A DNA stretch of 64,000 nucleotides, from the sequence record OZ035795.1. One strand, given 5' to 3'. Under the pieces are notes generated by a model. The model did no database searches and had not been told where the DNA came from. It worked only from the letters and a program-made list of their open reading frames with translations. A program made the translations under genes and the position numbers. How positions within the stretch are numbered: the first letter of the stretch is position 1; each line of letters opens with the position of its first letter. Shown here piece after piece: positions 2,382 through 12,292 of this stretch. This stretch comes from Krischvirus LF73P4.

Positions 2382-4382
2382 ATGACTCTATTATCACCGG
2401 GTTTCGAAACGAAAGAAACTACTCTCTCCACTACCATTGTGCAATCTGCGACTGGTCGCGCGGCGCTGGTAGGTAAATTTCAATGGGGTCCAGCTTTCCA
2501 GATTGTTCAAGTAACTAATGAAGTTGAATTAGTTAATAAATTTGGTCAGCCGGATAATAACACCGCAGACTATTTCATGAGCGGGGCTAACTTCCTCCAG
2601 TATGGCAATGACCTGCGTGTTGTTCGTGTACTCAATAAAGAAAAAGCAAAAAACGCAACCGCACTGGCTGGTAACGTCGAGTTTGAAATCACAAACGAAG
2701 GTTCAAACTATGAAGTAGGCGATACCATCAAGATTAAACATAACCGTCAAGATATTGAAACGGCTGGTAAAGTAACTAAAGTTGATGGTGATGGTAAAGT
2801 TAAGGGCGTATTTATCCCAACTGGTAAAATTATCGCTCACGCTAAAGCAATCGGTGTATATCCAGAACTTGATGGCGGTTGGACGGCAGAGTTCACTTCT
2901 TCGTCAGGTAACGGTAGTGCGGCGCTGTCAGTAACTAAAATTGTTACTGATTCCGGTCTTCTGTTAACGGATCTGGAAACTTCCCGCGCCAATATCACAA
3001 ATCAAACTTTCTTGACTAAACTCCAGAAGTATGATATGCCAGCGGTAAGCGCGATCTATGCTGGTGAGATTGGCAACTCGCTGGAAGTGGAAATTCTGGC
3101 ACGTAGTGCGTTTAAGAACACTGCACCGGATCTGACCATGTATCCTTATGGTGGCGAGCGCACCGCAGCACGCAACCTGATTCCATATGCACCGCAGAAT
3201 GATAATCAATATGCATTTATTGTTCGTCGCGATGGTGTTGTGGTAGAATCCTATGTACTGTCTACTCTGAAAGGGGATAAAGACGTATACGGCAATTCTA
3301 TCTACATGGACGACTTCTTTGCTCGTGGTTCTAGCCAGTACATCTATGCAACCGCTCAAGGGTGGGTAGATGGTTTCAGTGGTATTATCTCTCTTGCTGG
3401 TGGTGTTTCTGCTAACGAAGCAACGACTGCTGGTGTTGGTGCTGATCCGTTCATCGGTGCGATGATGCAAGGTTGGGATCTGTTTGCTGAACGAGAATCT
3501 ATTCACGTAAACCTGTTGATCGCTGGTGCATGTGCTGGCGAAGGCGATGCGTTCTCTACCGTACAGAAACATGCTGTTTCCATCGGTGATGAGCGTCAGG
3601 ATTGCTTAGTAATGGTTTCTCCGCCGCGTAGCACTGTTGTTAATATTCCGGTGACTACCGCAATTGATAACCTGATTGCATGGCGCGAAGGTTCAGGAAA
3701 CTATAATGAAAACAACATGAACATTAATACCACTTACGCGGTTATTGATGGTAACTACAAATATCAGTATGACAAATACAACGACGTAAACCGTTGGGTT
3801 CCTTTGGCTGCTGATATTGCTGGTTTATGTGCTCGAACTGATGTGGTATCTCAACCGTGGATGAGTCCGGCAGGTTATAACCGTGGTCAGATCATGAACG
3901 TGGTTAAACTGGCAATTGAGCCTCGCAAGTCGCACCGTGATCGTCTGTATCAGGCCGCAATTAACCCGGTGATCGGTGCTGGTGGTGAAGGGTTTATCCT
4001 GATGGGTGATAAAACCGCTACGACTGTTCCTAGCCCGTTTGACCGCATTAACGTTCGTCGTCTGTTTAACATGCTGAAAAAGAATATCGGCGATTCAAGC
4101 AAATACAAACTGTTTGAAAACAACGATAACTTTACTCGCGCTTCCTTCCGTATGGAGGTTTCGCAATATCTCAGCACGATTCGCTCTCTTGGTGGCATTT
4201 ATGACTTCCGAGTACAATGCGACACCACGAACAACACGCCTGATGTAATTGATCGTAATGAATTTGTTGCTAGCATGTTCATCAAACCGGCAAAATCGAT
4301 CAACTATATCATGCTCAATTTCACTGCTGTTGCAACTGGTGCTGATTTTGACGAAATTATCGGTCCAGCTAACCAGGCATAA
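2382..4382 (+). CDS. 18: tail sheath protein
   Basis: 666 aa; follows terminase as in T4; TATAAATA late promoter upstream. Confidence 0.9.
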   Translation: MTLLSPGFETKETTLSTTIVQSATGRAALVGKFQWGPAFQIVQVTNEVELVNKFGQPDNNTADYFMSGANFLQYGNDLRVVRVLNKEKAKNATALAGNVEFEITNEGSNYEVGDTIKIKHNRQDIETAGKVTKVDGDGKVKGVFIPTGKIIAHAKAIGVYPELDGGWTAEFTSSSGNGSAALSVTKIVTDSGLLLTDLETSRANITNQTFLTKLQKYDMPAVSAIYAGEIGNSLEVEILARSAFKNTAPDLTMYPYGGERTAARNLIPYAPQNDNQYAFIVRRDGVVVESYVLSTLKGDKDVYGNSIYMDDFFARGSSQYIYATAQGWVDGFSGIISLAGGVSANEATTAGVGADPFIGAMMQGWDLFAERESIHVNLLIAGACAGEGDAFSTVQKHAVSIGDERQDCLVMVSPPRSTVVNIPVTTAIDNLIAWREGSGNYNENNMNINTTYAVIDGNYKYQYDKYNDVNRWVPLAADIAGLCARTDVVSQPWMSPAGYNRGQIMNVVKLAIEPRKSHRDRLYQAAINPVIGAGGEGFILMGDKTATTVPSPFDRINVRRLFNMLKKNIGDSSKYKLFENNDNFTRASFRMEVSQYLSTIRSLGGIYDFRVQCDTTNNTPDVIDRNEFVASMFIKPAKSINYIMLNFTAVATGADFDEIIGPANQA

Positions 4383-8823: not shown

Positions 8824-10410
8824 ATGAAAACTACCAAAGAACTGATGGAAAAATGGTCCCCGCTGCTGGAGAACGAAAAACTGCCGGAAATCGCAACTGC
8901 GTCTAAGCAGAAACTGGTTGCTAAAATTCTGGAATCTCAGGAAGCGGATTTTGCTGTAGACCCGATCTATAAGGATGAAAAAGTTGTTGAAGCATTCGGT
9001 GGCTTTATCGCAGAAGCCGAAGTTGCTGGCGACCACGGTTATGATGCATCTCACATCGCGGCTGGTCAGACTACTGGCGCAATCACTAACGTAGGTCCGG
9101 CTGTTATCGGTATGGTTCGCCGTGCTATCCCTAACCTGATCGCATTTGATATTTGTGGCGTTCAGCCGATGAGCACTCCGACTAGCCAGATCTTTGCAAT
9201 CCGTTCTGTATATGGTGCTGATCCGCTGAAATCTGGTGCTCGCGAAGCATTCCATCCGATGTATGCACCTGATGCGTTCCATAGCTCTCTTGCTGCTAAA
9301 GATGCAACGACTGTTTCTCCTACTGGTACTGCATTCGCTAAACTAACTCTGCAAACTGCAATTCAGGCTGGCGATATTGTACACCACACCTTCGCAGAAA
9401 CTGGTATTGCATATCTGCAAAACGTTACCTCAGATGCAGTAACCCCAGCCAAAGCTGGCAGCGAGTCAGAAGATGAAGTTGTCATGAAGCTGATGGAAGA
9501 AGGTAAACTGGCTGAAATCGCTTTCGGTATGGCTACTTCCATTGCCGAAATTCAGGAAGGCTTTAACGGTTCCAGCAATAACCCGTGGGCTGAAATGTCA
9601 ATGCGTATTGACAAACAGGTTGTTGAAGCGAAATCTCGCCAACTGAAAGCCCGTTACTCTATCGAAGTTGCGCAGGATCTGCGTGCTGTACACGGTATGG
9701 ATGCTGACGCTGAACTGAATGCTATCTTGGCTAACGAAGTTCTGCTGGAAATCAACCGTGAAATCGTTGACGTCATCAACTTTACCGCTCAGGTTGGTAA
9801 GACTGGTATGACTCAGACCGTTGGTTCTAAAGCTGGTGTATTTGACCTGCAAGACCCGATCGATACTCGCGGTGCTCGTTGGGCTGGTGAATCCTTCAAA
9901 TCTCTGATCTACCAGATCGACAAAGAAGCTGCTGAAATCGCTCGTCAGACTGGTCGCGGTGCGGGTAACTTTGTTATCGCTTCCCGTAACGTTGTAAACA
10001 TCCTGGCTTCTGCTGATCAGGGTATCAGTCTTGCTATGCAGGGTGCTGCAAAAGGTCTGAATACCGACACCACTAAGGCTGTTTTCGCTGGTGTTCTGGC
10101 TGGTAAGTACAAAGTGTTCATCGACCAGTATGCTCGTCAAGACTACTTCACCGTAGGTTACAAAGGCGACAACGAAATGGATGCTGGTATCTACTATGCT
10201 CCGTATGTTGCTCTGACTCCGCTGCGTGCAACTGACCCGCAGTCTTTCCACCCGGTTCTGGGCTTCAAGACTCGCTATGGCATCGGCATTAACCCGTTTG
10301 CAGACAGCAAATCCCAGGCACCGTCCGCTCGCATCACCTCCGGTATGTTGAGCAAAGACAGCGTAGGTAAAAACGCATACTTCCGTCGTGTATGGGTTAA
10401 AGGTTGCTAA
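8824..10410 (+). CDS. 23: major capsid protein
   Basis: 528 aa; late promoter 8783-8790; strong terminator downstream; T4 gp23 size and position. Confidence 0.95.
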   Translation: MKTTKELMEKWSPLLENEKLPEIATASKQKLVAKILESQEADFAVDPIYKDEKVVEAFGGFIAEAEVAGDHGYDASHIAAGQTTGAITNVGPAVIGMVRRAIPNLIAFDICGVQPMSTPTSQIFAIRSVYGADPLKSGAREAFHPMYAPDAFHSSLAAKDATTVSPTGTAFAKLTLQTAIQAGDIVHHTFAETGIAYLQNVTSDAVTPAKAGSESEDEVVMKLMEEGKLAEIAFGMATSIAEIQEGFNGSSNNPWAEMSMRIDKQVVEAKSRQLKARYSIEVAQDLRAVHGMDADAELNAILANEVLLEINREIVDVINFTAQVGKTGMTQTVGSKAGVFDLQDPIDTRGARWAGESFKSLIYQIDKEAAEIARQTGRGAGNFVIASRNVVNILASADQGISLAMQGAAKGLNTDTTKAVFAGVLAGKYKVFIDQYARQDYFTVGYKGDNEMDAGIYYAPYVALTPLRATDPQSFHPVLGFKTRYGIGINPFADSKSQAPSARITSGMLSKDSVGKNAYFRRVWVKGC

Positions 10411-10495
10411 TATAAGCCATTCCTGAAAAACTCATGTCGGGTGCAATGCCCGACTTATCATAAACCTTATGACAGTGTAAAGTGTTAATTCCAAA

Positions 10496-10526
10496 GGGAA
10501 GACTCGAAAGGGTCTTCCCTTTTTGC
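10496..10526 (+). terminator. rho-independent terminator after gene 23
   Basis: Hairpin GGGAAGAC-tcgaaag-GTCTTCCC followed by TTTTT. Confidence 0.75.
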
Positions 10527-10540
10527 GTATCATACCCCGT

Positions 10541-10548
10541 TATAAATA
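10541..10548 (+). promoter_or_regulatory. T4-type late promoter TATAAATA
   Basis: Exact match just after the gene 23 terminator; heads a ~265-nt leader. Confidence 0.45.
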
Positions 10549-10813
10549 AGGTTGCAAGCCTATATTCTATTGGGAGCTAAAATAGATACACACAACAAAC
10601 AATTCCACCAATTTTCGTAGTAACTGCATGGCAAAGGACCAATGAATGAAATGAGCGTTCATGCTGATATTGGGTCGGATAGATTTGATAGATATACAAG
10701 ATCTGGTGTATGACGGACCTTGTTATGGCATTCCAGCGTGACGCTAGCGGTATTTTTTGGTTTTGGTACGCTGTTCCCTGAATTAACCCAAAATTCTCCA
10801 TAAGGAGGAATGC

Positions 10814-10966
10814 ATGAGTAAGAAAGAAAACAGCTATGTTATGACTCGTAAGGAATACAACGAATTGATGTTAGCATTAGCTTATGCAATTATTCGTTCT
10901 GATCATGCAATTAATCTGGTAAACAAAGTTAACCGTAGCGTTGATAATGTTTCTAGGAAGAAGTAA
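10814..10966 (+). CDS. small hypothetical protein (50 aa)
   Basis: ATG 8 nt after AAGGAGG; followed by hairpin+T-run terminator; lies where T4 carries segD. Confidence 0.4.
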   Translation: MSKKENSYVMTRKEYNELMLALAYAIIRSDHAINLVNKVNRSVDNVSRKK

Positions 10967-10976
10967 GTTTATTTTT

Positions 10977-11005
10977 GGAATCCTTCGGATTCCTTTTTCT
11001 TTTTG
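10977..11005 (+). terminator. rho-independent terminator
   Basis: GGAATCC-ttc-GGATTCC followed by a T-run. Confidence 0.65.
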
Positions 11006-11013
11006 TATAAATA
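11006..11013 (+). promoter_or_regulatory. T4-type late promoter TATAAATA
   Basis: Exact match 38 nt upstream of the gene 24 start. Confidence 0.6.
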
Positions 11014-11050
11014 TGATATATCCATTAAGGCAAATACAGGATTCATAAAC

Positions 11051-12292
11051 ATGACTCATATTTTTACTGAACTGTTGCGGGAATCTACTTCCTCAGTAGC
11101 TAACCAGACAGCGCGACCGCAACTATTATCATTAACTCGCGCGGTAAACAACCTGATTTTCTCTGATCTGGTAGCAATCCAGCCAACGGATCAACCAGTA
11201 TCTGCATTGTACGGCCTACGTTATCTTAATCGTGATGGTCAGATGACTTTCCGAACTGCTGCGACCTACGGTGGCGCGGCTGGTGATCGCACAGAGATTG
11301 AAGAGTTTTCAAAAGAAAAATCTTATGACGAAGGCGCACTGTTCAAATCAGGCGATGTTGTATACGAAGTTGTGACCGCTGGTACAGTCGGTGAAGATGC
11401 CGAAACTCCAGAAGCTGCGATCTTTAAAGGCGTAATGACAAACAAAATTCGTTTCTATAGCGATTGTGCATCGGTAGAATACTTTGAAGATAAAAACACC
11501 GAAATTTCGTCTACCTCTATGCAGTTTGATAAGTGGCAAGTTAATGTAGGTTCTCGTAAACTGAAAACCTCGTTCACCACTGAATTAATGCAGGATCTTG
11601 AGGCAAGCCAAATCAACTCTGAAAACTCTGTAATTGATCTTCTGGCTACTGTTGCTTCCGAAGAGATCAACAAAGATATTATTCAGAAGTTGATCACTGT
11701 ATCATCTCGCTATAAAATTAAAGGGATCACCCCTGATGGCGTACTTTCTCTCGTTAGCGTTCAGGATGCACCAAAACAAGCGCGTGAACTTTACCGCTAT
11801 GCTTGCGAAATGAGCAATCAAATGTTGCGGACTTCCTCCTTTGCTGGTACATACGTTTTGGCGTCTTCTCGCGTGGTTGGCCTCCTGCAATCTACCGGAT
11901 GGATGGAAGAAACCGACAATGCTCTAAGCGAAGGTCGTCTACGTTGCGGTCTGGAAGTGTACGCAGACACGACAACACCTTTCGATTATATGCTCGTTGG
12001 TTGTAAGCACATGATCGGTGATATGGAGAGTGTAGGTTCTCTGTTCTACTCCCCATATACAGAAGCCGACGGCGCTGGCGCGTATAAGAGCGTAATTGAC
12101 CCTAATAGCTTCCAGCATCATGTAGCTATTATGAATCGTTATTCACTCTCTGTCAACCCATATACATCAAAAGTTGATCAGGAAGAACACCAGGTCATCA
12201 AGGGTGACGATTGGGGTAAAATGGCTGGACGTTCAGAAATGTCCTACATTTTAGGAATCGAACTGCCACCGCTTGAGATTGACAACGCTTAA
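11051..12292 (+). CDS. 24: capsid vertex protein
   Basis: Start moved to internal ATG (MTHIFTELLRES) that aligns with recalled T4 gp24 N-terminus; TATAAATA at 11006-11013. Confidence 0.9.
   Translation: MTHIFTELLRESTSSVANQTARPQLLSLTRAVNNLIFSDLVAIQPTDQPVSALYGLRYLNRDGQMTFRTAATYGGAAGDRTEIEEFSKEKSYDEGALFKSGDVVYEVVTAGTVGEDAETPEAAIFKGVMTNKIRFYSDCASVEYFEDKNTEISSTSMQFDKWQVNVGSRKLKTSFTTELMQDLEASQINSENSVIDLLATVASEEINKDIIQKLITVSSRYKIKGITPDGVLSLVSVQDAPKQARELYRYACEMSNQMLRTSSFAGTYVLASSRVVGLLQSTGWMEETDNALSEGRLRCGLEVYADTTTPFDYMLVGCKHMIGDMESVGSLFYSPYTEADGAGAYKSVIDPNSFQHHVAIMNRYSLSVNPYTSKVDQEEHQVIKGDDWGKMAGRSEMSYILGIELPPLEIDNA

Follow-up and report, generated by a model that had tools for sequence, protein, structure and literature searches.

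Using a combination of homology searches across phage records, alignments of related loci, and fold and structure predictions, our work here indicates that the region between genes 23 and 24 of this Krischvirus is very probably the remainder of an ancestral late operon of the Krischvirus group, with a 50-amino-acid gene that we call ORF D as its surviving last gene. The DNA analysed, referred to here as the window, comprises 64,000 nucleotides of sequence record OZ035795.1 and belongs to a T4-type Krischvirus of the RB49/Phi1/GEC-3S type; 57 phage records match its positions 10400-11060 at 90-98% identity, RB49, Phi1, JSE, GEC-3S and Cognac among them. It was already known that D is annotated (RB49ORF162w, phrog_16600) and that its promoter was predicted in RB49 in 2006. 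New here is that the leader before D, and with it the small “hypothetical proteins” that annotations place there, is read as what is left of a late operon of three genes, and D as the last gene of that operon.

Layout of the junction and the intact operon in relatives

An earlier note on this DNA had described a late promoter, a long leader, a 50-aa ORF with a Shine-Dalgarno (SD) sequence and a terminator between genes 23 and 24, and we recover all four, at the coordinates listed here together with the flanking signals.

8824-10410: gene 23, as read from the sequence
10493-10527, plus strand: intrinsic terminator of gene 23 (13-bp stem, GAAA loop, T-run; -20.9 kcal/mol, z = -5.66)
10541-10548, plus strand: late promoter box TATAAATA, an exact octamer
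10549-10813: leader, 265 nt
10802-10808, plus strand: SD sequence AAGGAGG of ORF D, 5 nt before its ATG
10814-10966, plus strand: ORF D, 50 aa
10977-11004, plus strand: intrinsic terminator closing the ORF D unit (hairpin 10977-10993, then a T-run; z = -3.3)
11006-11013, plus strand: second TATAAATA, predicted as gene 24's own late promoter, adjoining the ORF D unit and outside it
11052: gene 24 start, an ATG conserved across genomes

Calls of the gene 24 start vary, with the program-made ORF list giving 11003-12292, from a TTG at 11003, and the SSG23 annotation (L010 4005-4536) overlapping D. A second conserved hairpin (GTCGGG-loop-CCCGAC, z = -3.5) is present at 10436-10454, 26 nt past the gene 23 stop codon and upstream of the main gene 23 terminator; its stem is kept in the Shigella phage JK32, and on the minus strand the hairpin scores as terminator-like as well.

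The ORF D product matches 58 phage records by tblastn, and the homologue from JK32 reaches only 60% identity. In that phage D sits just before gene 24 and is separated from gene 23 by four genes of 102, 572, 307 and 614 aa. A sensitive blastn search with the JK32 cassette added five more cultured phages, Brandy49, G2248, SSG23, SFHK24 and UPWr_E1 (the SFHK24 match being identical to that of SSG23), all with A, B and C intact and D 10 nt further on. Metagenome contigs with an 88-90% identical D show the same order of 102, ~569, ~310 and 50 aa, and the arrangement recurs in contigs whose D is only 47-57% identical, one of which adds a 656-aa coiled-coil gene; the cassette-bearing metagenome contigs are loci L012-L019 and L030-L034 of our set. 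The gene order of the operon is A (102 aa), B (~570 aa), C (~310 aa), in some genomes E (a coiled coil of 614-656 aa), and finally D (49-50 aa). Since E is found only in some lineages, the content of the operon itself varies.

In the relatives, A-C are annotated as “hypothetical”, alongside one “tropomyosin-like” gene. The latter is E, which lies between C and D in two diverged lineages (JK32, L007 4922-6766; L034 5017-6987). Gene B is a single gene of ~570 aa in G2248, SSG23 and UPWr_E1; the annotation of Brandy49 (L008 1181-2910) divides it into two ORFs that overlap, 1181-1933 and 1927-2910, a split that reflects either a frameshift or a sequencing error. D follows C by 10 nt in intact operons, and C or E by 13-29 nt in more distant relatives. 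It has no leader at all in this setting, and its SD sequence overlaps or abuts the stop codon of gene C (TAAGGAGG).

The leader as a remnant of genes A, B and C

Aligned with Brandy49 (L008), the window resolves into three blocks. The first, 10428-10594, corresponds to Brandy49 706-873 at 94% identity and contains the gene 23 3'UTR, the terminator, the late promoter, and the 5'UTR, SD and first three codons of gene A. The second, 10590-10659, corresponds to Brandy49 2449-2518 (90%), in the interior of gene B, and the third, 10641-11060, to Brandy49 3698-4116 (94%), which takes in the last 162 nt of C, followed by D, its terminator and the gene 24 promoter. The same order of blocks is found against JK32 at 70-75% identity. 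The promoter, 5'UTR, D, terminator and flanks are thus common to the window and the Brandy49-type intact operon, whereas ~2.7 kb of the operon, nearly all of A, B and C, is missing from the window, and what remains of these genes is frameshifted and start-less. Within the leader we distinguish three putative remnants.

10549-10594, plus strand: remnant 1, gene A 5'UTR, SD GGGAG (10572-10576) and first codons
10590-10659, plus strand: remnant 2, a 70-nt internal piece of gene B
10641-10803, plus strand: remnant 3, the last ~162 nt of gene C, with the original stop TAA at 10801-10803

Each piece carries its own marks of decay. The start codon of gene A has changed from ATG to ATA at 10586-10588 (JK32 and Brandy49 read AGATGCACAC, the window AGATACACAC), and ATA is present in 15 of 16 deletion-type sequences of one alignment and throughout two further sets. 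GEC-3S and RB49 keep 165 nt of gene B, which in GEC-3S matches Brandy49 2358-2518 at 88%; the window has a further loss of 98 nt in this piece, between two ACACAACAAA repeats, and this deletion sets the window, Makalu003, JSE and some metagenome phages apart from RB49 and GEC-3S. Compared with intact C, the C fragment contains three 1-nt insertions, at ~10698, at ~10715 and in the T-run at 10753-10758, and the tblastn match of gene C to window 10648-10799 is split over two frames. Short direct repeats mark the junctions, CACA-type between A and B, AATGA..AGCGTT between B and C, and ACACAACAAA at the 98-nt loss. No second copy of A, B, C or E was found elsewhere by tblastn over the whole window, nor any paralogue of B or C in deletion-type genomes by tblastn against all phage records. 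From these alignments, we read the leader as the decaying collinear remnant of a lost three-gene, fibre-like late operon.

Comparison among deletion-type phages sets the drift of the leader against the stability of D. The spacer between gene 23 and D ranges from 378 to 503 nt among 16 deletion-type sequences and has undergone independent indels of 98, 74, 22, 12, 11, 4, 2 and 1 nt. Because 10 loci of this 16-sequence alignment were collected through their exact identity with D, the diversity of D within it is biased and was discarded; 12 cultured deletion-type genomes, chosen without regard to D, served instead as an unbiased diversity set. In these 12 genomes the leader is variable at 49 of 358 columns (13.7%) with 13 gap patterns, and ORF D at 3 of 153 columns (2.0%) with 0 gap patterns (Fisher p = 1e-5 for leader vs D variability); third codon positions of gp24 vary at 17 of 200 (8.5%).

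The earlier note had raised the possibility that the leader is structured, and a functional cis-regulatory RNA controlling the translation of D, be it riboswitch-like, a thermosensor or protein-binding, would account for a leader that is long for a phage gene, follows its own promoter and pairs part of 10636-10760 in its minimum free energy fold. When checked, however, the fold of the leader scores -61.3 against a shuffle mean of -60.6 (z = -0.15), with 87 of 200 shuffles folding at least as well. An Rfam scan of 10300-11200 at E <= 10 gave no match in the leader, its sole match being a chance one to fstAT (E = 0.76) at 10956-11040, over the terminator. Relatives dispense with 98, 74, 22 or 12 nt of the leader and differ by many 1-nt indels, D does without any leader in intact operons, and the leader is itself made of coding fragments. 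With the fold at shuffle level, no Rfam family, frequent indels and a leaderless D in intact operons, a structured leader is not supported, and we consider such a control element very improbable.

Coding capacity in the leader is slight. The only ATG-initiated ORFs on its plus strand are of 23-26 aa, and no leader ORF on either strand is conserved in the 16 relatives. Neither D nor the remnant ORFs have a Pfam match, and neither has a minus-strand ORF of 74 aa (10577-10801); we rejected this last ORF, which is unique to the window and broken both in the nearest relative, L029, and in all others. Many relatives do carry an annotated ORF of the ORF161.1 type (42-57 aa, phrog_20809) in the leader, and one might take these ORFs for functional micro-proteins of which the window holds a variant form, given that about half of the relatives have an unbroken ORF of 45-50 aa, which has a PHROG family of its own. 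That family, built from Phi1 “ORF161.1”, nevertheless matches residues 265-303 of the 307-aa JK32_00161, which is gene C (E = 3e-16), and the ORF corresponds to the C-terminal 40-odd codons of that gene, read from a chance ATG in the B fragment. It is frameshifted at the T-run relative to intact C, its start, length and end vary between genomes, and its frame is interrupted in 9 of the 16 relatives, RB49 and the window among them; in the window it is split into 23-aa pieces at 10642-10713 and 10710-10781. We therefore see only a slim chance that these ORFs encode functional products, and return to their reading as pieces of gene C.

Constraint on ORF D and its control signals

ORF D (MSKKENSYVMTRK...) matches phrog_16600, the family of RB49ORF162w and Phi1 ORF162, with E = 1.5e-38 over residues 1-50 of 50; together with JSE EpJSE_00167 these are the same gene, with a 98-100% identical protein in the same place before gene 24. 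Its more diverged homologues, 47-60% identical, always lie directly upstream of gene 24, and 11 variants of D down to 47% identity all keep 49-50 codons, with one in-frame 1-codon indel. In three comparisons at moderate divergence dN/dS is ~0.14, and the most diverged pairs have reached saturation at synonymous sites, with pS of 0.75-0.95 vs pN of 0.24-0.40. The SD sequence of D has no substitutions in the 12 cultured relatives, the sole change being a 1-nt indel in the spacer in two of them. This pattern of substitution argues that D is a real protein gene under purifying selection, and one that is presumably translated. The earlier note had proposed a small late protein here, and sequence comparison bears it out with 58 records, a kept length and position, and the low dN/dS; the note had also named a lack of conservation in relatives as telling against the ORF, and D is conserved.

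All three variable sites of D in the 12 cultured deletion-type phages are non-synonymous, with 0 of 51 third positions variable, and D of Brandy49 differs from that of the window by 1 nt when the flanks differ by ~6%. Such a lack of synonymous variation suggests either a recent recombinational sweep or constraint at the nucleotide level. Both observations would also fit the conservation of 10814-10966 as a nucleic-acid element, for example in the processing or regulation of gene 24, and not as a protein. Against this, the wider divergence is protein-like in both the saturated pS and pN values and the dN/dS of 0.14, the one indel adds or removes a whole codon in frame, the start, stop and SD are conserved, and a terminator and an independent promoter separate D from gene 24. 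We assign this possibility a very low probability and retain D as a protein gene.

D appears to be restricted to a genus-level group, since searches find few relatives: a word-indexed homologue search returned close relatives only, and an exhaustive profile search of 1.84 billion representatives returned four further relatives, of which the three that were looked up (three of three) lie in the same context. The locus is never mentioned in the literature retrieved with its locus tags, in Arbiol et al. (2010) or in the RB49-like receptor paper. An AlphaFold2 model of D consists of one long helix (residues 12-49, mean pLDDT 87), the heptad pattern places hydrophobic residues at 82% of a/d positions vs 33% elsewhere, and the net charge is +5; D is thus predicted to be a basic, single-helix protein of the coiled-coil type. 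Since D is still constrained after the loss of A-C, its function cannot depend on those genes. Our best guess, which is speculation, is that D serves the head/vertex module as a small partner protein, either structural or in virion assembly.

The control signals around D can be followed through the same relatives. The late promoter consensus is the octamer TATAAATA at -13 to -6, and the late promoters predicted for RB49 include Pl:94970 and Pl:95534 (Nolan 2006), to which the boxes at 10541-10548 and 11006-11013 of the window correspond, respectively. The window as a whole holds 10 copies of TATAAATA vs 5.2 expected, a count that 6 of 100 shuffles reach; since this lies within chance, the significance of the box at 10541-10548 rests on its conservation. 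In all nine intact operons with a checkable upstream region the octamer is found 41-45 nt before the gene A ATG (at -41 in L030 and at -44/-45 in the others), with the gene 23 terminator ahead of it. Of the deletion-type genomes, 15 of 16 and 11 of 12 in two alignments retain the box, and it is kept in L026 although an 11-nt deletion abuts it. JSE is the exception, reading CATAAATA at this site (L036 469-476), with a C at -13, and its ORF D is still identical. The T at -13 is the least conserved position of RB49-type late promoters (Nolan 2006). Either -13 is tolerant of this change in JSE, or ORF D does not need the promoter there or is expressed in another way. On the strength of this conservation, the box at 10541-10548 would once have been the promoter of the A-B-C-D operon, and it is now the sole predicted promoter before ORF D.

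The terminators bracket this unit on both sides. The gene 23 terminator is invariant in the 16 relatives and is annotated as a terminator in GEC-3S and Makalu003, and a terminator after gene 23 was predicted in all six T4-type genomes compared by Nolan (2006). It would shield the downstream unit from gene 23 transcription. The stem of the ORF D terminator shows compensatory changes in diverged relatives (GGAATCC/GGATTCC, GGGAATCC/GGGATTCCC and GGGGAGATCC/GGGGTCTCCC). All intact operons have kept the promoter and both terminators, and in them the gene 24 promoter likewise follows the D hairpin. We suggest that the retained late promoter is read by the gp55/gp33/gp45-dependent polymerase as in T4, giving a transcript of ~450 nt that would run from a few bases past 10548 to the terminator at 10977-11004. 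Its ~260-nt 5'UTR would be a passive relic, and ribosomes would load at the AAGGAGG at 10802-10808 to make D.

History of the locus and the lost genes

We propose that, in the lineage of RB49, Phi1, GEC-3S, JSE and the window, two deletions of ~1.5 kb and ~1.2 kb removed most of A, B and C, each joining short direct repeats. These deletions would have left behind the promoter, the A 5'UTR with its start (now ATA), a scrap of B and the final stretch of C, and the scraps would later have evolved like junk, through frameshifts and further small losses such as the 98-nt ACACAACAAA deletion. Conversely, Brandy/JK32-type phages could have acquired the A-C cassette recently, by insertion, and the short leader could be the ancestral state, as the prevalence of the short form (52 of 58 cultured isolates) might lead one to expect. 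However, stretches from inside B and from the 3' end of C follow one another in gene order within the short form, an arrangement that only deletion from a long form can yield and that an insertion cannot. The cassette is moreover present in the most diverged lineages (D 47-60% identical), and all short forms carry the same two junctions, as fits a single derived event. This reversed history is accordingly extremely unlikely, and we keep to loss from an ancestral operon.

Homing endonuclease genes come and go in T4-type phages, and the earlier note had proposed that the junction, which it placed where T4 carries segD, might be the scar of such a gene. The position is correct by the T4 annotation, and a scar it does appear to be, though of the lost A-B-C operon; that it was left by a free-standing homing endonuclease, as might be supposed from the segD gene (GIY-YIG) between genes 23 and 24 of T4, has next to no likelihood, given that tblastn with T4 SegD finds no match in the window spacer at E <= 100 (matches elsewhere are noise, E >= 1.3), that Pfam finds nothing in the remnant ORFs, that none of the Krischvirus loci examined has an endonuclease gene at this junction, and that fragments of A, B and C account for the whole leader. 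In the T4 gene 23-segD-gene 24 region, gene 23 is likewise followed by a terminator and gene 24 preceded by a late promoter, but segD lies on the opposite strand and has no sequence relation to the window spacer.

A further parallel is offered by the plastic regions that set Phi1 apart from RB49, in which non-essential genes have been inserted, deleted or replaced (Arbiol et al. 2010, PMC2839356). These regions likewise reflect the gain and loss of accessory genes between close phages, with small differential ORFs left behind. In contrast to the regions described there, the locus studied here lies inside the late structural module, has a late promoter and shows plain junctions at short direct repeats.

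What was lost can be judged from the relatives that still carry it. Sequence searches of Pfam and the PDB gave no match for A, B or C, and beyond the phrog_20809 link, Pfam and PHROGs searches with A-C and E brought up only weakly matching tail-fibre families and noise from coiled coils. The model of gene C (pLDDT 74) predicts a coiled coil and a beta-sandwich knob and resembles receptor-binding fibre tips, namely the R1/R2 pyocin fibres (6cxb/6cu2), AP22 gp53 (4mtm) and a lactococcal receptor-binding protein head (2fsd), at modest scores, at 6-10% identity and with no sequence-level family match. Only the last ~54 codons of gene C survive in the window, and these are broken. The model offers a modest suggestion that the lost A-B-C genes formed an accessory fibre. 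Residues 38-119 of gene B (L009 1179-2891) also show a weak tblastn match to hypothetical proteins of Vibrio phages (34% identity, E = 8e-4), in 77 phage records, those listed being of 44-48 kb; this is the sole hint of relatives outside the genus.

A more specific proposal is that A-B-C, with E where present, form an accessory receptor-binding or decoration fibre and that D is its small coiled-coil partner with a second, cassette-independent role in the head/vertex module; it strikes us as improbable, if well short of negligible. If true, RB49-type phages would be fibre-less derivatives, and the cassette would explain the broad, O-antigen-independent host range of Brandy49. The host range of this phage is reported to be much broader and independent of O-antigen, by a mechanism described as unresolved, and the paper describing it compared only gp38 and gp12 (PMC9569957). 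We regard the link between cassette and host range as a lead, not a finding.

Phage gene loss and conserved ORFan genes are both commonplace, and the scar described here is unsurprising in kind, an ordinary evolutionary process seen in unusual detail. For annotation, the spacer “hypothetical proteins” of 42-57 aa in dozens of Krischvirus genomes would be fragments of dead genes and should be flagged as such, and RB49ORF162w would stand as a genuine constrained gene. The same comparison brings into view a fibre-like cassette, so far undescribed, that among cultured isolates six carry between genes 23 and 24, Brandy49 included. For the T4-type phages more generally, the junction may serve as a dated, stepwise case of how a phage drops accessory late genes through short-repeat deletions and keeps the promoter for the gene that it needs.
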